Virus record (IMG/VR): IMGVR_UViG_3300007542_000105
Span: 1-30,561 of that record
Reading direction: 5' to 3' (one strand)
DNA length: 30,561 nt
Origin: a virus
Taxonomy: Duplodnaviria > Caudoviricetes
Part shown: in pieces, positions 4,979-30,561 of the stretch
Position numbering within the stretch: position 1 is the first letter of the stretch
Layout: every line of letters starts with the position of its first letter
Made by a program: the position numbers and the translations under genes
The notes under the pieces: generated by a model
The model's database searches: none
What the model was told of the DNA's origin: nothing
Seen by the model: only the letters and a program-made list of their open reading frames with translations

Positions 4979-6892
4979 CTATCTTCGGGTCTCGTCGGGT
5001 TGATCGGCGGCCATTCCAAAGGCACCCACGCGGCCCAATCCACGGACCAAGTTTTGCGCCCGCGGCGATTCGATGCCTTGTGTTACCAGTTTGCGCGTGG
5101 CCCGATTGACGAAGGGTGCCGACGCGGCGCCAAACGTGCCCACCGTGGCCAAAAACTGCGCCGGTCGCGTGGTAAACATCTTCACCAGATCGAAGAGCTG
5201 ATTAGACTGCGCCGTTCCGGATGGGTTGGCAACCGCTTTTAGCTTGCCCTCACTGTTGCGCAAGAGAGCCGCAAAGCTAAATAGATACTCTCCCACCTCA
5301 TCGCCAAAAATCGCCTTGAGCTTTTCCGGTCCACCCATGCGCTCTATCTGCGACATCATGCGTGCGCCACTGATCGCGCTAAACGTCTCGCCGGCATCGG
5401 TCTCTACAGCCTCCCGCCCTGCCTTGATCGACTTATCCCGCAATTCTTCCAATACCTGCACTTGGATCTGCCGCCATGCCGCCGGTCCACCCTGGACAGA
5501 CGGTAGTCCCTCGGGGGAGGGTTGGTCTCCGATGCGTTGCCGCCAGCGGTTGACCTGCTTACTTGTAGTCGACCCACTCATAATATCGGGCACTAAGGTC
5601 TCTACCTTGTCCTCGTCGCGCAGTGCTCTGGATCGATTGATGGACGCCGTCCGAGTAGATATATCGCTCTTTGCTAAGTTGCGGGCCTTGGTCGACGCCT
5701 CTCCACCGATAGCCAGCACGTCCTCTGCTAAAGCCCCGTAAAGCCGCCCTGCCTCGGCATCCATGCCCGTCCTGCGTGCGGCACTGTCCAAGACATCCAA
5801 CTGCGCCCCGACCAACTTGCGTAGGTCGTTGAGGTCTTTAAAGGTCTGTACGTTCTCCGCGCTACTCGCCCACTGCTCAATCACGCCGCGCGCCTCTTGC
5901 CCGAGGTCAAACTTGGGATTGTTAAACGCCCCTCGCTGTATGTCGCCAATCGCGCGTAAGGTGTTGGTAGGTACCAAAGCGGTATTGGACGGCACGGCGG
6001 CCTCCAACTCCCTATAGGCATTATCCACGACTACCTTGCGCGATTCTACCGCGTTGGTCATGGCGTCAATGGCCTGCTGGCCGGTGGCCTCGCGTCCGGT
6101 GGGCAACGGGCCTATTTGTGTCCTCAGCTTATCAAAGGCATCTAAGGCCGACTGCTCAAACGGCTGGCGTACATTCCGCTCAAAGGCACCCCGCGTTATC
6201 GGCGATTCACTCAAGAACTGCTCAAAACCCTGTAGCCCGGTGCTATTGGTTTGTAATGAAAAGGGTAGATTCTCGGCCAAGTTGCTGCCCAACTGTGCGT
6301 CTATCCGCTCGGCTTGTGGTGTCAGCCCTTTTCCCCTGAAGGGCGCTTTCGCCAACTTCCCGACGAAGGGCAACGCCGCCTCTAACGCCGCATCGGTGCC
6401 TGCGCGCGTCAAGACTTCTCCCACATCGCCTTGGCTCTTACCGCCCAATAGGTTCGCCGTGGTCTGCTCTAACGCGCCACCCATTAACGCCCCTGCACCG
6501 GCTCCCGCTGGTCCCGCTGTAAGACCGCCCAGCACGCCTAATGCCGTAGAAGGTATGCGCCCAACCATATCCCCAATATCGCCCACGTCGAAGCCCTCGG
6601 GGTCCACTGGGAACGTGGACCCCCCTGCGCGAAACATTGGCCTACCTTGATCTGCAAACGCATCAACGCCTTGCTCTCGGAGTATGTTTATCTCACTCGG
6701 TCCGCTATTGGCAAAGCTCGCAGCAGCACGGTCAAGAAAACCGGGTTGGGCTTGTTCGCCTGCTGCGTCCATCTCGGCAATGAGGGGGCGCAAGCCTATG
6801 AGGTCGGCCCTTTCCCACTTGGCCAATATCTCGGGCGTCGATAGGGTCCGCAGGTCGTTTTGCAGCTCTCGGGCGCGGTCAATGTCTGCCAT
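4979..6892 (-). CDS. Putative internal virion/DNA ejection protein
   Basis: 637 aa, Ala/Gly-rich helical, glycine-zipper-like GVLGGLTAGPAGAGAGALMGGA, NPSGTAQ motif; position between tail genes and fibre. Confidence 0.7.
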   Translation of the reverse strand: MADIDRARELQNDLRTLSTPEILAKWERADLIGLRPLIAEMDAAGEQAQPGFLDRAAASFANSGPSEINILREQGVDAFADQGRPMFRAGGSTFPVDPEGFDVGDIGDMVGRIPSTALGVLGGLTAGPAGAGAGALMGGALEQTTANLLGGKSQGDVGEVLTRAGTDAALEAALPFVGKLAKAPFRGKGLTPQAERIDAQLGSNLAENLPFSLQTNSTGLQGFEQFLSESPITRGAFERNVRQPFEQSALDAFDKLRTQIGPLPTGREATGQQAIDAMTNAVESRKVVVDNAYRELEAAVPSNTALVPTNTLRAIGDIQRGAFNNPKFDLGQEARGVIEQWASSAENVQTFKDLNDLRKLVGAQLDVLDSAARRTGMDAEAGRLYGALAEDVLAIGGEASTKARNLAKSDISTRTASINRSRALRDEDKVETLVPDIMSGSTTSKQVNRWRQRIGDQPSPEGLPSVQGGPAAWRQIQVQVLEELRDKSIKAGREAVETDAGETFSAISGARMMSQIERMGGPEKLKAIFGDEVGEYLFSFAALLRNSEGKLKAVANPSGTAQSNQLFDLVKMFTTRPAQFLATVGTFGAASAPFVNRATRKLVTQGIESPRAQNLVRGLGRVGAFGMAADQPDETRR

Positions 6893-13322: not shown

Positions 13323-13553
13323 TTAGATAAGGTTTGCCCAAGCGCCATTCTCATAGCCTTGGAACTTGTTTAGCGTGCTGTTGTAAATGATCCAGCCGTT
13401 TGCAGCCGTGAGCGCGTCGCGTTGGGTCGTGGTCATAGACCCCACCTTGAGCACCTGCCCAATCTCCAAGACATCAAATTGGGCATAGGTGCCAAAGGTG
13501 GTCGCGGCTTTAACCTGTCCCGCCGCTACGGGGTCTTGACGAAACTCACTCAT
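13323..13553 (-). CDS. Small virion protein with fibre N-terminal-like motif
   Basis: MTTTQRDALTAANGWIIYNSTLNKFQGYENGAW matches the T..QR.A....G...YN......Y.G..W motif common in phage fibres. Confidence 0.7.
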   Translation of the reverse strand: MSEFRQDPVAAGQVKAATTFGTYAQFDVLEIGQVLKVGSMTTTQRDALTAANGWIIYNSTLNKFQGYENGAWANLI

Positions 13554-14249: not shown

Positions 14250-14288
14250 AGTAAAGGTGGGGCGTGCTTAGATTGGGCACGCCCCACC
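14250..14288 (-). terminator. Intrinsic terminator/attenuator after capsid and cement genes
   Basis: Perfect 12-bp stem GGTGGGGCGTGC/GCACGCCCCACC (14256-14288) followed on the minus strand by a short TTTACT tract; likely leaky. Confidence 0.75.
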
Positions 14289-17455: not shown

Positions 17456-18696
17456 TATAGCTCCTGATACGTTAGAGCGGCTTGCACTTCTGCTGCCGCA
17501 CCAAACGGCATGACGGCCAGGATAAACTCTTCGGGTGTCCCGTCAATCTGGCTGCCCAAATAGAGGGTCAGGTTTAACAGACCGCCGCCCGTACCGCGCG
17601 CATTGCTGCCCACCCCCGAAGCAATCACATACCCCGCGTCTACTAAAACGTCCCAACTATTGTCCGTAATGACATTAGCCGTAGCGCCATAGGCCACTTC
17701 CACCGCGCTATTCGGAACACTTGCATAGGTAAAGGTGCCGGCAATGGTCGGATTGACCAGCAGCATCCACTGGATATTATCGGCGGTCTCTATTAGGAAT
17801 GAGTTACCTATGGGCTGCACCTGCGCATCCAAGTGCGTGCTTTTTAAGCGAATACCTATCGCGGCATAGATCGTATCGGCTACATTAGCGACAATGCCCG
17901 TAGGGCTATTCTCGACCGCATGTATAATGCCGTTAGCTTGCAAGCCACCATTAGACACAATCGAGCTACAAATATGCTGCATGTCGGCGGTCGCGTCCGT
18001 AGAGCGCAGTTCATAGCGCACCGGCAGGTTCGGCGTAGAGATATAGACCGAGGTCTGCCCTGCAACATTGGAATGGTGCGTTTCGTGGACTACGTGCAGC
18101 GTCCCATCAATAAAGAACCCATAGCGCACCGTGCCTACGCCAAGCCACTCGTAATCCAAGTAGAAGATCTGCACTAAGGTCGGGTCGAGCGTGTAGCCTG
18201 ACGGGTTGGTCTCGCCATTGCTCCCGTCGAGCTTGTCCACGTTCCAGTCGGATTGCGCTACCCGGGTATCGACGGTGGCCTTGCGCTCAACGACATAGAT
18301 AACGCCCGCGTCATACTCGAAAAAGAGCCCGTCCGTTTCGGTAAACGATCCAACCCGGGCCTTGACGCCGCTGCCGCCAGCCGCCGCGACTAATTGCGTG
18401 GTATAGTAGCACTCTTGTGCCTTGCCCGGTTGGTAGTTCCAGTGCGTCTTGGTCTGCCGTATAATAACGTCATCGGTCTCTACGTGCATCGTCACCAACG
18501 CATTGGCTGTGCTGTGCGTGCTCGTAGCATTGCCCGAGGTGTTGGTGATCTGCTCATCCCAAAACAGCGGCATCTTATCGTGCAAAAGTTTGGAGTCAAA
18601 GATGGTCTGCGGCTCGGCTACCGTCAGGCGGCCAAACGCATCGCTACCGATAGGCTTGACCAAGGGCGTCTGCTTGATGTTGTTAAATTTGCCCAT
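17455..18696 (-). CDS. Beta-rich conserved viral protein of unknown function, possibly structural
   Basis: 413 aa; DAFGRL.V.EP.TIFDSK, YQPGK, QSDWNVDKLDG, DYEWLGVGTVR.GF motifs that I recall from uncharacterised viral proteins. Confidence 0.7.
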   Translation of the reverse strand: MGKFNNIKQTPLVKPIGSDAFGRLTVAEPQTIFDSKLLHDKMPLFWDEQITNTSGNATSTHSTANALVTMHVETDDVIIRQTKTHWNYQPGKAQECYYTTQLVAAAGGSGVKARVGSFTETDGLFFEYDAGVIYVVERKATVDTRVAQSDWNVDKLDGSNGETNPSGYTLDPTLVQIFYLDYEWLGVGTVRYGFFIDGTLHVVHETHHSNVAGQTSVYISTPNLPVRYELRSTDATADMQHICSSIVSNGGLQANGIIHAVENSPTGIVANVADTIYAAIGIRLKSTHLDAQVQPIGNSFLIETADNIQWMLLVNPTIAGTFTYASVPNSAVEVAYGATANVITDNSWDVLVDAGYVIASGVGSNARGTGGGLLNLTLYLGSQIDGTPEEFILAVMPFGAAAEVQAALTYQEL

Positions 18697-20243
18697 TAGT
18701 TTTCATCCTGCATTGATGCTATGCCAACACCGCCCGCAATCGGTGCCGCTGCGTGTAGTAGGCCGCCACCTGGAGCAAATGCACCATCGTTGCCTATAGC
18801 CGATTTAGCCTGATCGCCCGATAAGGTCACGTAAAGATCACCCTCGTCAGATGTATTTCGTATAATCACACCATCAAACTTACCACTTCTAATCGCATCC
18901 CTAAAGGGGGCACCCTCGCGTCCAAATTGAACCGTCCCTGCTGGCTTTCCCTTTGCATCTATAACAAAAGGCTTTTCTATTCGTAAGAAAACAGGGAATA
19001 CGGGCGCGCTCGATTCTGCGTTGCCTCCACTAAGGTGGCGCGCAAAATGGTCCGCAACTTTTGGCTCAGAAGAAAAGAAGCCCCCAATATTTACGCCGGG
19101 TTCGCCTGAATTAAATGCTGGGAACTCGCTTTGGCGCTGTATCTCATTGATTGGCTCACCTGTATCAATATTCAAATTATTCATACCCTTAAAAACGACC
19201 TGCGGCGAACCATCCTCATTTAAAACCTTGCTATTGCCGAAAAATGATTTGAACTCAGGGGTTTTCACTTGAGGACTACGGCTTAACGCTTGCCCCTCCA
19301 ACGCGCCGGGATTCTCTACCCCCTCGGCCAGTTCAGCCAATCGGGCCTGCCGTGGCGTTGCTGCCTTATTTGTGGCCGCGCCTATAACGCCCAAGTCAAC
19401 TATCTCGGAGGCGTAATTGCCTTTGCTGTCTACCGTGACAATGCCGTCGAATCCATCGCTCAGTAGAGCCTTAGATAGTTCTACGCCCGTTTTGCCGCCA
19501 TACGCTTCGGATAGGGCGCGCTTCCATGCTCTCGTATCGACATGCTCAACGACCAAAGGCTTGTTAAATGTTATTTCCCCTGCCTCCATATTGGGCGGCA
19601 AGTCAAAACGCTGCTCCCTCTGCTGCATGAATCGACCGGCGGGCTCTATGTCTTGGCCAAACCGACTGCCCATATCTGGGGCCTTCTCTGTATTGCGTAT
19701 AAATTCAAATGATACGGGCTTGCCGGTTTCAAAGTCTATGCCTCCGCTTGTCCTGATCTTTGCAGTGGGCACGCCGCTTAATTGTGTTGCCGCCTTGAGC
19801 CCCTTGCTCACCTTGGCTATATCGGCCAATAGCGGCAACGCACCCGCCAGCATACCCGCCGGCACAAAGTCCGTCGCACTCGCTACACCGCCGATACCGC
19901 GCTGCTCTACGCCCTGCTGCATGGATTTAAGGACCGCATTGCCCAGCGCACCCGCAGACGATAGCATCTCGCTCGGGGGTTGGCTTACAAAGTTGCTCAC
20001 GCCTTGACTGATCGCCGGCAACGCCTGCCGCACGCTACGCCCTGCCGCTTCGCCTGATCGGATCGGATCGGCTAAGACGCCTGCAAGGGATGCCACCATA
20101 CCCGCATCGTCTGCCGTGCTGTCTACAATGCCCGTATGGCTCTTGAGCAAGATACCCTCTAAGGCGCGCTGCAGGGCCGACTTCTCGCCCGGTCCTGTGC
20201 CCGTATTACTAAACGCTGGGGTTATGTCGCCTCTCAGGTTCAT
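18696..20243 (-). CDS. Polyvalent-type protein with C-terminal ART-PolyVal-like ADP-ribosyltransferase domain and a second ART-like domain
   Basis: TPEFKSFFGNSKVLNEDGSPQVVFKG...GGFFS...VFPVFLRIEKP...FDGVII...DQAKSAIGNDGAF follows the ART-PolyVal pattern; the upstream domain ends GFDGIVTV...SEIVDL. Confidence 0.72.
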   Translation of the reverse strand: MNLRGDITPAFSNTGTGPGEKSALQRALEGILLKSHTGIVDSTADDAGMVASLAGVLADPIRSGEAAGRSVRQALPAISQGVSNFVSQPPSEMLSSAGALGNAVLKSMQQGVEQRGIGGVASATDFVPAGMLAGALPLLADIAKVSKGLKAATQLSGVPTAKIRTSGGIDFETGKPVSFEFIRNTEKAPDMGSRFGQDIEPAGRFMQQREQRFDLPPNMEAGEITFNKPLVVEHVDTRAWKRALSEAYGGKTGVELSKALLSDGFDGIVTVDSKGNYASEIVDLGVIGAATNKAATPRQARLAELAEGVENPGALEGQALSRSPQVKTPEFKSFFGNSKVLNEDGSPQVVFKGMNNLNIDTGEPINEIQRQSEFPAFNSGEPGVNIGGFFSSEPKVADHFARHLSGGNAESSAPVFPVFLRIEKPFVIDAKGKPAGTVQFGREGAPFRDAIRSGKFDGVIIRNTSDEGDLYVTLSGDQAKSAIGNDGAFAPGGGLLHAAAPIAGGVGIASMQDEN

Positions 20244-23899: not shown

Positions 23900-24374
23900 T
23901 GACCTCCTTGTCCTTCGCGTAGAGCCCCATGTACTTCATTAGCTTGTCGAGCGCCGCCTGCTTGTCGTATAGCTCAAACTCGGTCTTGAGGATAGGCATT
24001 TGCTCGTTGGCGTCGCCTACAAACTGCACCTCTTGCTTGATCTTTTTGACTGCGCGCATACCATCCGGCCCCATCTGCCTAAAGTCCATTCGGACGTTGC
24101 CGTCCTCGTCGATCGTGTTATACTGGCCCATATCGGCAAAGGCCAACAGTGCCAGCTCACGCAACACAGCACCGGCGGTGATCTCGGCCCTCGACGCCAT
24201 CTCCAGCAGCTTTTCCCGCACTGCTTTGGCTATTTCTGGTTTTTGGAGGTTTTCCCACCCAATCTTAGCCGCAGTGTCTTCGCTGTAACCCGCTGCCAGA
24301 GCAGCCCTTGAGGCGTTGCAGTCTATGCAATACTCACTTATAAACAATGTCTGCTTATCGGTCAGCTTGGCCAT
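23772..24374 (-). CDS. terS: Terminase small subunit
   Basis: LTDKQTLFISEYCIDCNASRAALAAGYS...ENLQKPEI and LYDKQAALDKL, the Terminase_2-type pattern. Confidence 0.93.
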   Translation of the reverse strand: MAKLTDKQTLFISEYCIDCNASRAALAAGYSEDTAAKIGWENLQKPEIAKAVREKLLEMASRAEITAGAVLRELALLAFADMGQYNTIDEDGNVRMDFRQMGPDGMRAVKKIKQEVQFVGDANEQMPILKTEFELYDKQAALDKLMKYMGLYAKDKEVNANVSIDAKVSHEHRTVSDARDRLEKLFPTGSGTRLQNVLQD

Positions 24375-24639
24375 CTTTACCCTGTGTCAACTTGCAATAG
24401 AAGTCGCTGACCTCTTTCAGTGTATCTTTCCCTGTATTATAGTGGACCGGGGCAGTCTCCATCAATTTGCGGAAGATGTTACCTGTGTCATCACCTACGG
24501 GCATCGGTTTCACGTGGAACTCGTCGGGGATATATCGCCGTCCACTTTTATATACCTTGGCCGTGGCGCTAAAGATCGCGTCATAGCCCTCTCGGTATTT
24601 AGCGTTGTCCTCTGGCCTGCGCTTGCTTCCCTTGCTCAT
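24355..24639 (-). CDS. Phage hypothetical protein
   Basis: Start at ATG 24639 (ATGA overlap); MSKGSKRRP...Y.EGYDAIF N-terminus. Confidence 0.65.
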   Translation of the reverse strand: MSKGSKRRPEDNAKYREGYDAIFSATAKVYKSGRRYIPDEFHVKPMPVGDDTGNIFRKLMETAPVHYNTGKDTLKEVSDFYCKLTQGKDGQADR

Positions 24640-24839
24640 TGGTTCCCCACCCATCGATCTGCGGCCGCCTTGTTGCGCCGTAACTTTTGCTCTAACGTCA
24701 ACACCGCCGGCCGCTTGACGATATACGTCACCCGAGGCGTGCTCAGTCCAAACTTAGCCCCGATCTTCTTATAGCTCATGCCGGTAGCGTGTAGGTTTTG
24801 TATAGCCAAGTCTCGGATTGGGGTAGCGTGCTTGGGCAT
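24636..24839 (-). CDS. Small helix-turn-helix protein
   Basis: RDLAIQNLHATGMSYKKIGAKFGLSTPRVTYIV is a clear HTH (sigma region 4/Mor-like). Confidence 0.78.
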   Translation of the reverse strand: MPKHATPIRDLAIQNLHATGMSYKKIGAKFGLSTPRVTYIVKRPAVLTLEQKLRRNKAAADRWVGNQ

Positions 24840-25192
24840 TATACACCCCCTAAGCGCTCATAGTCGCCCACGGTGATAATGTAAGCGGGGGTGTCGTTGA
24901 GGTTGGTGCGTATGCCTTTGGGTGGCGTGAAGGAGTCCTCATTGCGGGCCAGTTGGTCGTAGGCACTGGAAACGCGAGCCAATTCCGCTTTAGTGACGCT
25001 CAATAATTCGACCGCTTCCTTACGCGCGTCACTGGCCTGCTTTTCTCGCTGCTCGGCTAACGCGCGCTGGTTCCGCGCCTCATCCAGCTCATCGCTTGAA
25101 TTATCCTTGGGGGCCGCCGCCAGTTTCGCTTCCAAAACCTTTATGCGGTCCTCTGCGATCTTTAGGTTCTTTTCGAGTGTGCTTTTTAGCAT
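24839..25192 (-). CDS. Coiled-coil hypothetical protein
   Basis: 117 aa with heptad pattern; RBS TAAGGA. Confidence 0.72.
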   Translation of the reverse strand: MLKSTLEKNLKIAEDRIKVLEAKLAAAPKDNSSDELDEARNQRALAEQREKQASDARKEAVELLSVTKAELARVSSAYDQLARNEDSFTPPKGIRTNLNDTPAYIITVGDYERLGGV

Positions 25193-25209
25193 CAGTGCGT
25201 CCTTATGGG

Positions 25210-25461
25210 TTATACCGTTACGTCCTCGTCGCCCGTGTATGGGTTGGGCTGTATAAACGGCTTCACTGCTTCAAATAGCCGATTGGATAACTCTACCGGC
25301 AACTGCACTACCGCCGCATTAAATACCGCCTCGCCTCCTGTATGCCCCCTTGCGGGAATGGCACACTCAAAGGTCACTTTTGCCTCGGGGTCCGTGTAGT
25401 CTATAATCACCCGCTTAACATTCAGTCTTGCGGATATGGTAACAGGTAGAGAGTGTGCCAT
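25210..25461 (-). CDS. Hypothetical protein, probable first gene of the late operon
   Basis: 83 aa; RBS TAAGGA; follows a TATAAT box. Confidence 0.65.
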   Translation of the reverse strand: MAHSLPVTISARLNVKRVIIDYTDPEAKVTFECAIPARGHTGGEAVFNAAVVQLPVELSNRLFEAVKPFIQPNPYTGDEDVTV

Positions 25462-25486
25462 TGTGTCCTTATGGGCTTGGTATCAT

Positions 25487-25518
25487 ATTATACGTCACGT
25501 TACAAGGTGACGTGACAA
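25487..25518 (-). promoter_or_regulatory. Putative late promoter with inverted repeat over the -35 region
   Basis: Perfect TATAAT (25487-25492, minus strand); inverted repeat GTCACGTTAC-AAG-GTGACGTGAC (25494-25516); no consensus -35 at 17 bp. Confidence 0.6.
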
Positions 25519-25630
25519 AGAAGAAATCTGTGGGCTTTTTCGGGAGTCGCTCCCTGCAAGGGTAATCAATTTCCCCGCTACTGTAAAGGGGCATATGCCC
25601 CAATCTGCCATAGTGTACCAAAATATAGCA

Positions 25631-25819
25631 CTATTCGTCCTTGCATGCGGTGAATATATGGTAGTTCATCTCGTCGCGTGCTTCTTCGAGCTTTTTGTCA
25701 CACCGGGCCAAGTATCTCTCGCGTTCCATACGAGAGGCCTCTATTTGCGCCTCAAGTGGGGATTTGCCCCACCAATCGCGGGCTGACTTGTCAATACCCT
25801 CATAGGTGTCCTCTATCAT
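25631..25819 (-). CDS. Hypothetical protein
   Basis: 62 aa; RBS AAGGGGA; abuts the upstream stop. Confidence 0.62.
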   Translation of the reverse strand: MIEDTYEGIDKSARDWWGKSPLEAQIEASRMERERYLARCDKKLEEARDEMNYHIFTACKDE

Positions 25820-26008
25820 TTATTCCCCTTTCATCTGCTCAAGTAGCGCATGGCCCACATCGGCGCGCAATTGCTCTGCCTCGGCCTCCGTTGAGTCAAT
25901 GGGCAAGACATACCGGGCCGCATACCAATCGACGCCGCGCTGGGCAATAGCAAAGCCCACCAACTCGTCATCAATCGCCTGTTCCTGCGTGTATAGTATG
26001 TCCTGCAT
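25820..26008 (-). CDS. Hypothetical protein
   Basis: 62 aa ending KGE, which supplies the next RBS; own RBS weak and start uncertain. Confidence 0.5.
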   Translation of the reverse strand: MQDILYTQEQAIDDELVGFAIAQRGVDWYAARYVLPIDSTEAEAEQLRADVGHALLEQMKGE

Positions 26009-26056
26009 GGTCGTTGCTCTGCGTTTAGTATCTGCGTGTCCATAGTGGGTAAGATA

Positions 26057-26296
26057 CTATACGTCTCCGCTATCGGCAAGTAGTTCCTCCCGCGCCAGGT
26101 TGTTCCACTGCTGCTTGGTCAAGGGCCATTCCATCCACAACTTGACCAGCGTCTCTCCATCATCCAGCACGACCGGCGGCAGGGTTAAGCCCTTACCTCG
26201 GGGCGTCAGTTCGCCGTCCTCGATGCCGTCCTGCACTGCGTTGACCACCTTGAGTACTAAGTCTCGCAGTTTGAGTTCCGCCTTAGTCGTTGCCAA
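26057..26296 (-). CDS. Hypothetical protein
   Basis: 79 aa, TTG start overlapping the nuclease gene end, GGAGGG upstream. Confidence 0.55.
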   Translation of the reverse strand: MATTKAELKLRDLVLKVVNAVQDGIEDGELTPRGKGLTLPPVVLDDGETLVKLWMEWPLTKQQWNNLAREELLADSGDV

Positions 26297-26624
26297 AATC
26301 TCGCACCCTCCATTTCTCCCGCGTCTCTTCAGGTATCTTTAGCATTTTCCAAACGTATTCCAACCACTTCTCTTCGGTCCCGTAGTTGTTCTCCCACGTC
26401 TTTATGCCGGCATGTACCGCTATGCCATAGCCTCCGGTCTGGTGGTGCTTCGGGCATAGCGGTATAGCGCGATAGTCTGCGGCGCGCTGGCCTGCTCCCT
26501 CTCCTGCTCGGACGTGGTGGATCTGCGCTGGCTTCAAGCATATACAACAGCCGAGCGCGGCCACGGCGTCGAGATACTCGGGGTCAACGATCCGCTTTTT
26601 CTGGCGCTTGGGCTTTAATTGCAC
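26283..26624 (-). CDS. Ref-like (RecA-dependent)/DUF968-type HNH nuclease
   Basis: YLDAVAALGCCIC..PAQIHH...G.GQRA...IPLCPKHH...AVHAG...WE..YGTE; GTG start with RBS GGGAGGGAG. Confidence 0.82.
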   Translation of the reverse strand: MQLKPKRQKKRIVDPEYLDAVAALGCCICLKPAQIHHVRAGEGAGQRAADYRAIPLCPKHHQTGGYGIAVHAGIKTWENNYGTEEKWLEYVWKMLKIPEETREKWRVRDFGND

Positions 26625-26748
26625 GCGCTCCCTCCCTTGCTGTCTCGGGTTGATACGCCAAATCTATGATAGGCCGGCAGACACAGCACGTACCCCACTG
26701 CTTACCCGGCTCGCCGACATATACCTTGCCACACCATGCGCAAATCAT
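26584..26748 (-). CDS. Small zinc-finger protein
   Basis: ATG 26748 after AAGGGAGG; CAWC...CCVC. Confidence 0.62.
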   Translation of the reverse strand: MICAWCGKVYVGEPGKQWGTCCVCRPIIDLAYQPETAREGARAIKAQAPEKADR

Positions 26749-26762
26749 GCTGCCTCCCTTCG

Positions 26763-27182
26763 TTAGTACGACCAAACGGCTGGCCGTGGAAACCGAGTGG
26801 ATATAGCAGGACTCATACAATCGAGGTGTAGGAAGCGAGACTCGAGCGGTCCCTGCTGGGAAATGCCGATCCCCGTAAAGCCCAACAACAGCGCCTCGCT
26901 CAGGACTACATACGCCTTATCCCCCGATACGGCAATGTCTACCGCCACCCCGTAAGTATGAGTGCCGCGAGCCGCCTTGGCAGCTTCTACCGAGTGATCG
27001 GGTGATCTATACCCACTCGTAACCTTCAGCGCAAACCCGCAGCCGCTTCTGAGCCGTTGCAGCTTATCCATAAACGATAGATCAATAAGACACTGGCCAG
27101 TTTCCCTGCACGCTAACTCAGCAAGGCTAAAGTTCGGCCAGCGTTCCCTATCCCACGTATCGGCGGTATATTCTTTTATCAT
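26763..27182 (-). CDS. Peptidase M15 family (D-Ala-D-Ala carboxypeptidase-like) endolysin candidate
   Basis: NFSLAELAC, VTSGYRS..H, GTH..G.AVDI, GFTGIG, FLHLD: the H-x6-D and terminal H zinc-ligand pattern. Confidence 0.88.
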   Translation of the reverse strand: MIKEYTADTWDRERWPNFSLAELACRETGQCLIDLSFMDKLQRLRSGCGFALKVTSGYRSPDHSVEAAKAARGTHTYGVAVDIAVSGDKAYVVLSEALLLGFTGIGISQQGPLESRFLHLDCMSPAISTRFPRPAVWSY

Positions 27183-27520
27183 CGTATGATCCCCTTCCGG
27201 CCCATGCCGGCGTCATGCCGAGCCTTGCGCTTCTTAAACTCGGCGCGCTGTTGAGCGTAGTCCTCCACGACCTCGGGCGCTACAAACGTCTCTGGGGGTA
27301 TATCGGGTTGGATCGGCGGGTATTCTCTCGCGTCGGCCGGCAGCTCTCTGGCTCGGGCCATGGCCCGGTAGGTCGCCGCTTCTATGGTGCCTATGTCCAG
27401 CACGCCTGTCACCCAATAGTTTAGGCCCAAGCTCAATATCGCGTCTAAGGTCTTGCCGTCCTGCGCGTCCCGTATGGCTTGGAACATGCGCGCGGCTACG
27501 TCATGGCTATTCGTTTCCAT
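27179..27520 (-). CDS. Hypothetical protein
   Basis: ATG 27520 (METNSH) after GGAGG, overlapping the MTase end; ATGA overlap with the peptidase. Confidence 0.65.
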   Translation of the reverse strand: METNSHDVAARMFQAIRDAQDGKTLDAILSLGLNYWVTGVLDIGTIEAATYRAMARARELPADAREYPPIQPDIPPETFVAPEVVEDYAQQRAEFKKRKARHDAGMGRKGIIR

Positions 27521-28910
27521 TAAATATTGCCTCCACCAGAGCAATGCGTTCACCTATCCAGCACATCACCGGCACTGCCATCGAGTTGCCTATAGCCTTA
27601 TACCTCGGTCCATCAGGGCAGTCCTCTGCCGCCTTCTTTCTCCACGGAATCTTCGTGTGGTCATCGGGCATCCCCTGAAGTCTCTCACACTCCCGTGGGG
27701 TCAATCGGCGCACTTGCATCTCAGGCACCGCAAGATGCGGTGCCTTGTCGCTCGCCCCATAGAATTGCGCTGAGAGTGCGCCTACCTTGTCTGTGTCTCC
27801 CTTCGCGCCTCCTTGCCCTCGCGTGTAATAGCGCGGCTCAAACGCCACGGCGTGAGGAGATGAGTCAAGCGTCGGACTCATCTCTGATTGTTCGCCCATG
27901 CTCCGCGTCTTCTCGCTGTTCTTCGGGATGAATCCGATGGCATGACCTCGATCTTGCGCGCCAAGAGGGAGCGCCGCTCCCTCGCTACTTACGGGTGTCT
28001 CTCGCGCATTTACGCAGATGAGATGTCCAGCCTGGACATCATCGTTAGCGATGCCATTATTACGCCCCTTACGTGCCGTGACTGTGCCAACTACTTCACC
28101 GCAGGGTAGGGCGACAATGCCGCCCTGCTGGCCCTTATTGCAGTTGAGTGTTCCCGCTTGCCCCTCGACCGTCTCCGCGTTGGCTTGATCGGAGCCGCGC
28201 CAGATGGTGAGCGTCTCGCTACCGCCACCTAAGTCTCCTCCGTCTCGCCGAAGGGTGCCGCACCCTTCGGCGTATTTTCCGAAGCTACTTGCTGTAAAGC
28301 CTGCGCTAACAGTGGGGGCAAGGTCTTCCCTCGCTTCTCGGCTCGGCGTAGGATGCCCCTGCAAGCTGTGGGACTCAAACAGTACCGCTGCGGCACCTCG
28401 TTGCTCGACTCCAAGATGTCCGATAAGAAAGACACGCCGGCGTCTTTGTGGAACTCCGAAGTTTTGAGCGTCCAAGACTCTCCACGCGAGATTATACCCG
28501 AGTTCTGCCATCGCCCCGACGATGCTACCAAAGTCCCGTCCTTTGCTACTTGACAGGACTCCAGGGACATTTTCCCAGACAACCCACTGGGGCGAGAGTC
28601 GGTCAGCAAGGCAGCAAAACTCAAGGGCGAGGTTGCCACGCTCATCGTCCAAGCCTCCTCGGAGTCCAGCAACGCTGAAGGATTGGCAAGGGGTTCCTCC
28701 CACAAGAACGTCAATTGCTCCAGCTCTTTGGGCTTTTTCCGCGAAGTCGGCACTCGTCATATCTCCTAAGTTGGGTACATTCGGGTATCGATGGGCTAAT
28801 ACAGCGGCAGGGAATTTCTCAAACTCAGCGAAGAACACAGGCTCCCAACCAAGCGGCTCCCATGCGAGGGATGCGGCCTCTACGCCAGAGCAAACGCTTC
28901 CGTATCGCAT
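27507..28910 (-). CDS. DNA (cytosine-5) methyltransferase, orphan; alpha polypeptide
   Basis: Start ATG 28910. Motif I SVCSGVEA, IV GGTPCQSFS, VI WENVPG, VIII FGVPQRRRRVF, IX RRLTPRECERLQG, X AIGNSMAVPV. Confidence 0.95.
   Translation of the reverse strand: MRYGSVCSGVEAASLAWEPLGWEPVFFAEFEKFPAAVLAHRYPNVPNLGDMTSADFAEKAQRAGAIDVLVGGTPCQSFSVAGLRGGLDDERGNLALEFCCLADRLSPQWVVWENVPGVLSSSKGRDFGSIVGAMAELGYNLAWRVLDAQNFGVPQRRRRVFLIGHLGVEQRGAAAVLFESHSLQGHPTPSREAREDLAPTVSAGFTASSFGKYAEGCGTLRRDGGDLGGGSETLTIWRGSDQANAETVEGQAGTLNCNKGQQGGIVALPCGEVVGTVTARKGRNNGIANDDVQAGHLICVNARETPVSSEGAALPLGAQDRGHAIGFIPKNSEKTRSMGEQSEMSPTLDSSPHAVAFEPRYYTRGQGGAKGDTDKVGALSAQFYGASDKAPHLAVPEMQVRRLTPRECERLQGMPDDHTKIPWRKKAAEDCPDGPRYKAIGNSMAVPVMCWIGERIALVEAIFNGNE
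28229..28753 (-). CDS. Nested alternative-frame gene inside the MTase (EcoHK31I beta-polypeptide-like)
   Basis: 174-aa same-strand ORF in another frame; GTG start 9 nt after AGGAG; LSDILE...VPQRYCLSPTACRGILRRAEKRGKTLP..L..AL. Confidence 0.72.
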   Translation of the reverse strand: MPTSRKKPKELEQLTFLWEEPLANPSALLDSEEAWTMSVATSPLSFAALLTDSRPSGLSGKMSLESCQVAKDGTLVASSGRWQNSGIISRGESWTLKTSEFHKDAGVSFLSDILESSNEVPQRYCLSPTACRGILRRAEKRGKTLPPLLAQALQQVASENTPKGAAPFGETEET

Positions 28911-29017
28911 TATTGGTTGCTCCCGAAGAGTAGGACAGGCAGGATATGATACGCGAGTATAGCCACCGCCGCTACGGCCAACCATGCGATGCCCTCTACA
29001 ACTTCGTCTTTACGCAT
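28910..29017 (-). CDS. 35-aa single-TM peptide MRKDEVVEGIAWLAVAAVAILAYHILPVLLFGSNQ
   Basis: Not in the ORF track. Strong RBS GGAGGA; its TAA overlaps the MTase ATG (TAATG). Confidence 0.75.
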   Translation of the reverse strand: MRKDEVVEGIAWLAVAAVAILAYHILPVLLFGSNQ

Positions 29018-29034
29018 TGTGCTATCCTCCGGTA

Positions 29035-29134
29035 ATGCAGAGGACGGGTTATGGGCGTCTTGCAAAGACAATCAACTACCCTTAGTTGTTTCCCCATACT
29101 CCGCTTTGGAGTAAAACCCGTCCTCTGGCTGTAT
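29035..29134. ncRNA. Candidate multibranch structured RNA (5' leader and/or antisense RNA)
   Basis: 13-bp perfect closing stem 29038-29050/29115-29127 enclosing three hairpins and a further TATGGG/CCCATA helix. Confidence 0.65.
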
Positions 29135-29145
29135 CAACTACCGTA

Positions 29146-29174
29146 AAGATAGTGCAATCTTTTGCCCATGTCAA
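29146..29174 (-). promoter_or_regulatory. Sigma70-type promoter with operator-like spacer
   Basis: TTGACA-17 bp (TGGGCAAAAGATTGCAC)-TATCTT. Confidence 0.8.
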
Positions 29175-29182
29175 GCGCAATA

Positions 29183-29335
29183 TTAATGGTGGCCGTAGCG
29201 CGCTTCCAGCATGAAATTATTAGCATAGATCACAACCCATACCGCCAATGTTGCCTCCCAACCCACCAAAGTATATAGCCAATAGACGCCCCCTAAACCC
29301 AAGATTGCGCTTGCCCTGTTCAGCCACTTAGCCAT
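29183..29335 (-). CDS. Small membrane protein (50 aa)
   Basis: ATG 29335 after GAGGGA; hydrophobic AILGLGGVYWLYTLVGWEATLAVWVVIY. Confidence 0.62.
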   Translation of the reverse strand: MAKWLNRASAILGLGGVYWLYTLVGWEATLAVWVVIYANNFMLEARYGHH

Positions 29336-29348
29336 GTCGTTCCCTCGC

Positions 29349-29666
29349 TTAGTTAAAGTTATGCTCAAAGTTCTGCGCCTCGATCCGCGCCTTGGCCTTG
29401 CCTATGCCTTCCAGCCCGAGTAGGTGCGAGTCGGTGGGGAAAAAGTAGCACCAGGTCTCTTTGGCCGGGATATAGTAGAATAGCGCCAGGGCTCGCTTGC
29501 CCGACGATTTGAGGTACGTCACAAGGGCTATATACTCGGAGGTAGGGCGCACGCTTTCTACGGTGAAGGTTTCCGCGCCTTGGTTGCGGCTGCGGTCGGG
29601 ATTGCTGTAGTGGGTCGCTACCTCTTGCGCCTTGTCCCATAGCTTGAGTGCTACCTGCTTGTTCAA
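29349..29666 (-). CDS. Hypothetical protein
   Basis: 105 aa, TTG start with strong RBS AAAGGAG; globular-looking (KSSGKRALALFYY, W.YFFPTDSH). Confidence 0.72.
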   Translation of the reverse strand: MNKQVALKLWDKAQEVATHYSNPDRSRNQGAETFTVESVRPTSEYIALVTYLKSSGKRALALFYYIPAKETWCYFFPTDSHLLGLEGIGKAKARIEAQNFEHNFN

Positions 29667-29775
29667 CCTATACTCCTTTCAATACCAACCTTGCTCTGTA
29701 TTGGGGCCGAGCTTCGGCGCTTCGGTCTATTCGTACTCTTGAGCGTACCTTGTACAGTAGTTCGGTAATGTACTT

Positions 29776-29804
29776 ATTATATAGGTCGCGTTTTTCATTG
29801 TATA
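29776..29804 (-). promoter_or_regulatory. Putative sigma70-type promoter
   Basis: TATACA-17 bp-TATAAT, just downstream of the palindrome cluster. Confidence 0.55.
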
Positions 29805-29824
29805 ACCCAATGCCCATATCCAGA

Positions 29825-29958
29825 TCGGGAAAGTAGATAAATAATCGAACTCACAGGTAAAATGCAGGGTGACAATAATATTGTCAGTCGGTAACGTTTA
29901 TTGTCAGTTTCACCATATTAAGTGACAATAATATTGTCACTTTCGGGAAAGTAGATAA
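29825..29958. repeat. AT-rich cluster of palindromes bracketed by 16-bp direct repeats (operator array or origin)
   Basis: TCGGGAAAGTAGATAA at 29825-29840 and 29943-29958; TGACAATA-A-TATTGTCA at 29870-29886 and within 29920-29942; half-site at 29899-29906. Confidence 0.85.
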
Positions 29959-29977
29959 CTATTTAGAGACATGCGTG

Positions 29978-30232
29978 TCACGCTCTTTTTATCTTTCGCT
30001 TGTATGTTGGGGGCGATTTATAGCCATCATCGCCGGGGTTGAGCATACGGATCTCTTCGGCAACAGTGGGGTAATAAACTGGATCGGGGGTGAGCGCGGG
30101 GCCAGCCTGGTGCGCAGAAACAAACTTTATATACTTGCCGCACTTGCCGCAACTGGCCTTTATGTGGGGGCCAGATTTAGTTAGAGTCGGCTCGCTCCGC
30201 TGGTTGCATCGCTTACACTTCAGTTTCTTCAT
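29978..30232 (-). CDS. Zinc-finger protein
   Basis: CKRC...SGPHIKASCGKCGKYIKFV; start probably ATG 30232, overlapping the HTH gene end. Confidence 0.72.
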   Translation of the reverse strand: MKKLKCKRCNQRSEPTLTKSGPHIKASCGKCGKYIKFVSAHQAGPALTPDPVYYPTVAEEIRMLNPGDDGYKSPPTYKRKIKRA

Positions 30233-30458
30233 AACGCACAAGATCCCCCGGCTGGCACTTGAGCACGCGGCACAGCTTGGCGATAGTGTAAGTGGTCGGT
30301 GAGCACTGGCCGGTGCGTATGCGCCTAAACTCTTGGCGCTGCATACCGGCAGCCTCGGCTAACGCGGTCTTGGACCGATACCCGGCAAGCTCTTGCAGGC
30401 GCGCCAGTTCGGGCCAATTCCATGTTAGATCGTCGCGTTTTATATTAGAAGTAGTCAT
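30213..30458 (-). CDS. XRE/Cro-CI family HTH regulator
   Basis: SKTALAEAAGMQRQEFRRIRTGQCSPTTYTIAKLCRVLKCQPGDLV; 81 aa with no peptidase domain. Confidence 0.9.
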   Translation of the reverse strand: MTTSNIKRDDLTWNWPELARLQELAGYRSKTALAEAAGMQRQEFRRIRTGQCSPTTYTIAKLCRVLKCQPGDLVRYEETEV

Positions 30459-30464
30459 ACAGTA

Positions 30465-30493
30465 AATATATAAGCGATTCGCACAAAGGGCAA
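30465..30493 (-). promoter_or_regulatory. Leftward promoter, probably giving a leaderless HTH mRNA
   Basis: TTGCCC-17 bp-TATATT, then 6 nt, then ATG; no RBS. Confidence 0.62.
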
Positions 30494-30523
30494 TATTTTA
30501 TTGGCTATCGTGCAAAATACCTC

Positions 30524-30552
30524 TTGACATGGGCAGAATAATGCACGATATT
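30524..30552 (+). promoter_or_regulatory. Rightward sigma70-type promoter with operator-like spacer
   Basis: TTGACA-17 bp (TGGGCAGAATAATGCAC)-GATATT; near copy of the 29146-29174 promoter. Confidence 0.75.
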
Positions 30553-30561
30553 TAAAGCAAG

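Follow-up and report, generated by a model that had tools for sequence, protein, structure and literature searches.

A candidate orphan RNA in the interchangeable first slot of a leftward phage operon

To our knowledge, functional RNAs encoded by phages are few, and most of them are copies of host RNAs such as CRISPR repeats, tracrRNA and tRNA. Here we describe a structured element in a 30,561-nt DNA fragment of an uncultured, aquatic tailed phage (IMG/VR record IMGVR_UViG_3300007542_000105, analysed at full length and hereafter called the window), where it stands directly behind a minus-strand promoter and ahead of genes for a 35-aa peptide with a single transmembrane (TM) segment and a C5 cytosine methyltransferase (MTase). 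An earlier note on this DNA, made from its letters alone, had taken the RNA, peptide and MTase for one RNA-controlled cassette, comparable to the C4 and CI systems of phages, with an RNA switch that would gate the peptide and the MTase-endolysin-nuclease operon. Our analysis instead makes the element a credible candidate for an orphan phage RNA with an unlisted fold, and not part of an RNA-gated toxin-methyltransferase system.

The locus beside described phage RNA systems

Several of the closest described systems join a structured RNA to a small open reading frame (ORF). C4 of phages P1 and P7 and the CI RNA of P4 lie close to the 5' end of their transcripts, ahead of a small ORF that is itself coupled to a larger gene, and they have a terminal helix that is a potential processing substrate; the element shares these features. 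In C4, loops a' and b' pair with targets (PMC5320573, excerpt), and CI RNA pairs with seqA and seqC (PMC4825925, excerpt). This hallmark pairing with targets on the same transcript, both up- and downstream and one of them over a ribosome-binding site, was not found here: all six loop and junction segments tested against the next 235 nt paired no better than with shuffles (the best, the P2 loop, at 6.5% of 200), and the sole upstream complement lies in the closed stem P4. C4 consists of three stem-loops, whereas the element is predicted to form five helices arranged in two tandem three-way junctions, with no match to C4 in Rfam at E<=10. C4 and CI are accompanied by an icd or kil ORF and an antirepressor or replication gene, whereas the peptide here is not icd- or kil-like in Pfam, PHROG or NCBIfam and is followed by a C5 MTase gene. 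Finally, the element is dispensable in relatives.

The IsrK-orf45-anrP region of Gifsy-1 shows the same succession of promoter, structured RNA and small ORF with a stop overlapping the next start. IsrK, however, pairs with ~30 nt of orf45 and leaves it OFF by default (PMC4825925, excerpt), whereas the best helix that the element can form downstream is 10 bp with G.U pairs, a chance-level match, and the default is predicted to be ON. The 35-aa hydrophobic single-TM peptide behind a structured 5' region also recalls type I toxin-antitoxin systems. There the ribosome-binding site (RBS) of the toxin is sequestered, whereas the RBS of the peptide is predicted unpaired, and is open too in a relative with a bare leader (locus L094, below). 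No family match links the locus to these systems, and no plus-strand antisense promoter or terminator was found across the gene; the nearest plus-strand promoter-like site reading across it is at 28033-28060, although a weak or trans-encoded antitoxin is possible.

Like HK022 put, the element is a structured RNA directly behind a phage promoter that heads a long operon; it differs in fold and length, and neither Rfam nor sequence comparison gave a match. The vsgRNA/Racr RNAs resemble it as accessory phage RNAs of ~90 nt among small accessory genes. A vsgRNA has a 5' guide, a capped lower stem, a tracr tail and a terminator (bioRxiv 10.64898/2026.06.01.729453, excerpt), whereas in the element a helix joins both ends and there is no terminator. 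Its fold is not like that of a single-guide RNA, with a guide and a repeat:antirepeat stem, and, unlike a solitary CRISPR repeat of the Racr type, it matches no CRISPR-repeat family in Rfam.

Several other candidates were considered and rejected. Retrons carry a reverse transcriptase (RT) gene beside an msr-msd RNA closed by the a1/a2 repeats; no RT domain was found among the 38 window proteins scanned, the window being part of a genome. For a hammerhead, a GAAA junction is present but there is no room for the other core strand. The phi29 pRNA was set aside in a phage that has both small and large terminase genes. The c-di-AMP and cobalamin riboswitches gave no Rfam score.

A self-closing element in an interchangeable slot

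The element heads a long leftward operon, with minus-strand genes from there to ~3766. A perfect 13-bp inverted repeat forms its terminal helix P1 (Table 1). As minus-strand RNA it folds better than all of 200 shuffles (z -4.9 for 126 nt and -5.1 for 95 nt), with most pairs at 0.8-1.0 probability, and it is predicted to form a closed unit in which the terminal helix encloses two three-way junctions and the RBS of the peptide gene is left free. A coarse scan of 554 segments found strong folds elsewhere in the window (z -5.2 at 13421-13530 and -4.8 at 29866-29975); its segments cut through the element, which reached z -5.2 when re-run in register. The fold energy alone does not give the RNA strand, because plus-strand RNA (z -4.6 and -5.7) and single-stranded DNA (ssDNA; z -6.9 and -7.7) fold equally well.

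The promoter, 13-bp stem, three hairpins, RBS, 35-aa ORF and stop/start overlap all lie at the positions that the earlier note had given them. It had written the hairpins, correctly placed, in plus-strand letters, whereas the RNA would be the minus strand. Its TATGGG/CCCATA inner helix contends for bases with P1 and P2, at the ends of both, and keeps 4 bp, not six, in the centroid. Of its ~120-nt non-coding leader, only ~10 nt precede the stem if transcription starts near 29139. As side observations, a 10-nt direct repeat joins 29133-29142, across the inferred start site, to 29071-29080, at P4 and its junction (found in 0.25% of 2000 shuffles, post hoc), and a pairing between the P2 loop and P5 appears possible by eye.

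Relatives separate the element from its neighbours. Among 114 candidate stretches, a search with the peptide alignment confirmed three viral loci (L094, L031 and L032), of which the last two are nearly identical, leaving two independent haplotypes. Each of the three has the promoter and the peptide gene but not the element, which is also absent from all three whole records; the idea of a single RNA-controlled cassette does not fit this distribution. In L031 and L032 a 55-aa ORF stands between promoter and peptide, and the MTase then follows. In L094 only a short leader separates the same promoter from the peptide gene, which is followed by the gene for a 124-aa protein, with no MTase between; in the family of this protein the same direct junction is found in the N-termini of 2/8 proteins. 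Contigs assembled from sequencing runs show similar variation. Runs X12 and X13 each yielded an element-bearing contig together with one in which other sequence bridges 29014 and 29145, and contigs of X10, X12 and X13 lack 29176/9-29353 while keeping promoter and element. Because both the relatives and the X12 and X13 contigs vary in this way, the RNA and the MTase are accessory pieces independent of each other, grouped around a promoter and a peptide gene that stay together. The first slot behind the promoter is thus interchangeable, holding the RNA, a 55-aa ORF or nothing. The contigs come from 6 of the 24 listed runs, with eight possible source runs left out of the counts; no RNA run is listed among those containing the element, and X12 and X13, which we guess may be RNA runs, were treated as DNA contigs.

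Where the element is present, it has changed little. In contigs that diverge by 4-11% in their flanks, its identity is 97-100%; six contigs from four runs show 1/66, 1/36, 0/100, 1/136, 4/136 and 2/111 differences. One X13 contig differs at 1/136 positions in the element, against 40/368 towards the peptide and MTase (p 3e-5) and 16/343 in the gene upstream (p 0.05), and one X10 contig at 0/128 against 13/312 (p 0.013). At each of the three listed variants (29050, 29106 and 29112) the minus strand changes from A to G; in two cases an A-U pair becomes G.U, and the third falls in the P2 loop. The transcribed strand is favoured by these changes, because they leave the minus-strand fold intact (from -42.3 to -42.7/-42.6 kcal/mol) and cost the plus-strand fold 1.2-1.4 kcal/mol (from -44.7 to -43.5/-43.3). 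A diverged copy in an X10 contig, aligned by eye, retains 35/36 core letters and the 3' tail. Its P1 3' strand departs from that of the window by three substitutions and one insertion: the extra base would pair with the bulged base of the window, one change gives G.U and two need partners on the unseen 5' strand. This copy continues into other sequence, with no RBS in the 14 nt visible. On such sequence comparisons the element looks to be under selection.

In line with the earlier note, which had recognized no known RNA family, Rfam 15 gave no match in the window at the gathering threshold; at E<=10 over 28850-29250 it gave a single 14-bit match, to Yar_1 (threshold 50), which lies outside the element. 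ARAGORN found no tRNA or tmRNA genes. Element searches across three public collections used exact patterns or a single sequence, which miss diverged copies. In viral contigs, a P1-arm pattern matched 30 times, a junction pattern 14, the 3' core 108 and the flank of the diverged copy 24 times, and none of these matches aligned beyond the pattern. The core pattern gave one real match of 38 in metagenome contigs and none of 17 in genome contigs. The one real match is L259, which is the same phage as the window (99.98% identity over 4511 bases) and not an independent copy. By blastn, phages gave three short chance matches and plasmids none. Among 86 sources, a covariance model built from the one sequence matched only the window and L259, and it matched nothing in 50 of the 61 whole viral records intended for it, most of which were fragments and seven near-complete. 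Element copies were therefore found only in the window phage, L259 included, and in contigs of the examined runs, and the element is single copy in both the window and L259. Six short motifs from it are absent from files 3-6 of the viral RNA catalogue of Fremin et al. (PMC10690425), although it may stand in the other files.

We favour, with a little less than even confidence, the reading that the element is a self-contained non-coding RNA (ncRNA) gene of ~95-110 nt in a swappable first operon slot, acting in trans and likely on a host protein. An ncRNA acting in trans is suggested because the unit closes on itself, spares the next RBS and is conserved through its loops, and the element is likely not a gate for peptide and methyltransferase. 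The promoter would read through a variable first slot that here holds the self-closing unit, with transcription from ~29139; host nucleases would trim the RNA from the operon mRNA at the terminal helix, and the free RNA might then bind a host protein in trans as a decoy or counter-defence RNA, the decoy step being drawn by analogy only. vsgRNAs, as ~90-nt trans-acting phage RNAs in accessory regions, provide a precedent (bioRxiv 10.64898/2026.06.01.729453, excerpt). That the element further represents a new class of trans-acting phage RNA, with a ~95-nt double three-way-junction fold, traded among aquatic phages, excised from the transcript and acting through its invariant core, unlike any catalogued RNA, on a host defence enzyme or regulator, is possible but doubtful.

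Several observations weigh against a trans-acting RNA. Both RNA strands and ssDNA fold about equally. No strong minus-strand terminator follows the element, and none of the six terminator-like sites in 24000-30561 is on the minus strand, so a free RNA would need processing. Three of three variants would be tolerated by chance with a probability of 0.10-0.31, and X15 contains two further differences beyond the listed three. The diverged copy is one contig, at a depth of 4.9 and with its 5' half unseen, and the contigs covering the element contain no compensatory double change. The high identity could also stem from a recent insert spread by recombination at a conserved promoter, not from selection. 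The evidence base is one narrow phage group, which makes the element a good candidate rather than an established RNA. If our reading is true, it would suggest that the accessory slots of phages carry RNAs original to phages, and comparing slots behind common promoters would be a way to look for more of them; if the element is only a leader, its interest is modest.

Rival accounts of the element

The alternative that survives best, although unlikely, is a nascent RNA acting in cis like HK022 put, which would fold behind the promoter, bind RNA polymerase and aid read-through of the long leftward operon. The element does lie directly behind its promoter, as putL does (PMC9378689, excerpt), and both its near-invariant sequence, loops included, and the long minus-strand operon downstream, to ~3766, would be accounted for. 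However, put consists of two side-by-side stem-loops of ~70 nt (PMC9378689, excerpt) and the element of one nested fold that closes after ~100 nt; it is missing from relatives that share the promoter and the start of the operon; and terminator-like sites occur at shuffle frequency (6 against 6.1, and 16 against 17.2).

The strong ssDNA fold (z -6.9 and -7.7) raises a rather unlikely second alternative, that the element works as an ssDNA structure in priming, recombination or protein binding and that it sits behind the promoter by coincidence or to ease melting there. G.T wobbles account for the variants as well as G.U pairs do, an extra outer helix needs bases upstream of the inferred start and is possible only in DNA or read-through RNA, and the phage encodes an Erf-like annealing protein. 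Set against this are a start of the element ~10 nt past the inferred +1, an origin-like palindrome cluster elsewhere (29866-29975), the relatives that do without the element and its single copy in the window and L259.

The model of the earlier note, a translational switch in cis, now seems quite unlikely. The outer half of P1 would be swapped for an anti-RBS hairpin, gating the peptide and, by coupling, the MTase. The 3' strand of P1 can indeed pair with the RBS over 7 bp, to the exclusion of outer P1, removal of the first 60 nt in silico lowers the unpaired probability of the RBS to ~0.29, the stop/start overlap resembles that of Gifsy-1 orf45-anrP (PMC4825925, excerpt), and 4/4 carriers that reach the peptide start keep the downstream context. 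But the RBS lies outside the fold and, from the inferred start, is predicted open (unpaired probability 0.77-0.98 for five of its six bases, 0.43 for the first G); the OFF fold is 6.7 kcal/mol worse than the ON fold and prevails only once most of the 5' half is gone, the RBS staying open (0.95-0.99) when no more than the first 30 nt are deleted. An anti-RBS match of 7 bp also turns up in 7.4% of 1000 shuffles. With the next 235 nt the element forms at most a 10-bp helix, G.U pairs included, a length that 75% of 100 shuffles reach, and no loop pairing with downstream mRNA rises above chance. Furthermore, peptide and MTase occur without the RNA and the peptide without the MTase, and the visible letters of the diverged copy contain no equivalent anti-RBS.

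It is improbable that the element is simply a processing or stabilizing mRNA leader, with a nuclease site in its long helix or a 5' barrier, that raises downstream expression. A 13-14-bp terminal helix just before an open RBS would suit this role, and C4 is matured by an RNase P cut at the 5' end of the P1 stem (PMC5320573, excerpt), but near-invariant inner hairpins and loops would be unexplained, and the diverged copy alters the outer helix while keeping the core. Very improbable is a functionless or selfish insert resembling a miniature inverted-repeat transposable element (MITE), with 13-bp terminal repeats and recently spread by recombination: its accessory nature, short length, perfect inverted repeat at the bounds and very low divergence would fit a recent arrival, but there is no target-site duplication beside the repeat and only one copy, the outer repeat differs in the diverged copy, and a MITE needs neither three inner hairpins nor tolerated variants.

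Neighbouring genes and other features of the window

Table 1. Positions in the window of the element, its parts and the adjoining features
Feature	Position	Strand	Basis
Sigma-70-type promoter (-35, 17 nt, -10); kept in relatives with and without the RNA	29146..29174	-	consensus match
5' leader, predicted unpaired, ~10 nt from inferred start near 29139	29130..29139	-	distance from the -10 box; folds
Structured element, predicted: helix P1 joins both ends around two tandem three-way junctions (P1-P2-P3, P3-P4-P5)	29037..29129	-	folds and conservation
P1 5' strand, 13 nt	29115..29127	-	pair probability 0.5-1.0
P2 hairpin, 6 bp, 5-nt loop; bears 2/3 listed variants	29097..29113	-	folds
P3 5' strand, 4 bp with 29052-29055	29093..29096	-	pair probability 0.77-0.89
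P4 hairpin, 6 bp, 4-nt loop	29073..29088	-	folds
P5 hairpin, 5 bp, 3-nt loop	29057..29069	-	folds
P1 3' strand, 13 nt; outer part altered in one diverged copy	29038..29050	-	folds, contig alignment
Short 3' tail, kept with 1-nt insertion in diverged copy; likely 3' element boundary	29031..29036	-	aligned by eye
RBS of peptide gene, outside fold	29025..29030	-	fold computation
35-aa single-TM peptide gene, small unnamed phage family; with or without RNA	28910..29017	-	profile and family searches
C5 cytosine MTase, 467 aa from ATG overlapping peptide stop; accessory, absent here in L094	27507..28910	-	family scans
Nested 174-aa out-of-frame ORF in MTase, M.EcoHK31I-like second chain	28229..28753	-	PHROG MTase matches, tblastn

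The ATG of the peptide (29015-29017) follows the RBS by 7 nt, its stop shares base 28910 with the ATG of the MTase, and its best 19-residue Kyte-Doolittle mean is 2.44. A profile search of 1.84 billion representatives returned five matches of 33-50 aa, all with an invariant-looking core where the hydrophobic stretch ends; six clusters comprise 23 sequences, for which the best name is 'hypothetical protein'. No Pfam, PHROG or NCBIfam family passes, and the best ESM Atlas match (0.86) is hypothetical and a lead only. Judging from its sequences, the peptide is a real small phage family, as the earlier note had supposed of the gene and its overlap with the MTase; the toxin role that it had attached is made less likely by the bare leader of L094. 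Type I toxins commonly, but not always, have a positively charged C-terminus (PMC8309996, excerpt), and the peptide has none. This absence and the open leader in L094 argue against an acutely toxic peptide that needs the RNA. It may serve in exclusion, in lysis timing or as a membrane anchor.

Independently of the RNA, the MTase appears, from comparison of related loci, to hide a conserved out-of-frame gene. The nested ORF has its own RBS-like site, and tblastn matched it in 55/57 related MTase loci, 49 of these 55 having no stop in the aligned part. In M.EcoHK31I the second chain lies wholly within the first in another frame (PMC2836561, excerpt); the two share this layout of a second chain nested out of frame. 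In split C5 MTases of this type the nested chain supplies motif IX and is required for activity. A 12-bp hairpin at 28246-28272 falls where the nested ORF ends, within the variable region of the MTase.

The promoter has its -35 box at 29169-29174 and its -10 box at 29146-29151 on the minus strand, with 10/12 consensus matches. It has a rightward twin at 30524-30552, with an inverted similarity of 41 nt at 78%; the window thus has two promoter matches where 0.18 are expected, and both twins are conserved in relatives. The divergent twins (29144-29184 and 30514-30554) have a common spacer sequence that includes a short palindrome, and they flank a helix-turn-helix (HTH) repressor gene (30213-30458); they are conserved in L094 and L095 and are likely operators of this repressor. 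Between the two promoters, an AT-rich cluster of repeated palindromes at 29866-29975 (z -4.8) is a candidate replication origin. Just upstream of the leftward promoter, a 61-aa hydrophobic ORF at 29176-29353, missing in contigs of X10, X12 and X13, marks another accessory slot.

Among the proteins of the 30.6-kb fragment are terminase subunits, a major head protein, an SU10-type adaptor and an M15 peptidase/endolysin, as well as an HNH-like nuclease, the C5 methyltransferase and the HTH repressor. L259 extends the window rightward and adds the gene for the Erf-like annealing protein. In searches of cultured phages the capsid protein had no match, giving no cultured relative or hint of the host, and the best terminase rows, at 23-24% identity, gave no host hint either. 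The head module includes a 515-aa protein (18696-20243, minus strand) with an ART-PolyVal ADP-ribosyltransferase domain (E 6e-11). A 15-bp GC-rich hairpin at 14256-14288 occupies the gap after a 167-aa gene, and the strong fold at 13421-13530 (z -5.2) lies inside a 76-aa ORF. In L094, a different 145-aa gene (6147-6584) takes the position of the M15 peptidase of the window, ahead of the shared nuclease gene, and is possibly a swapped endolysin.

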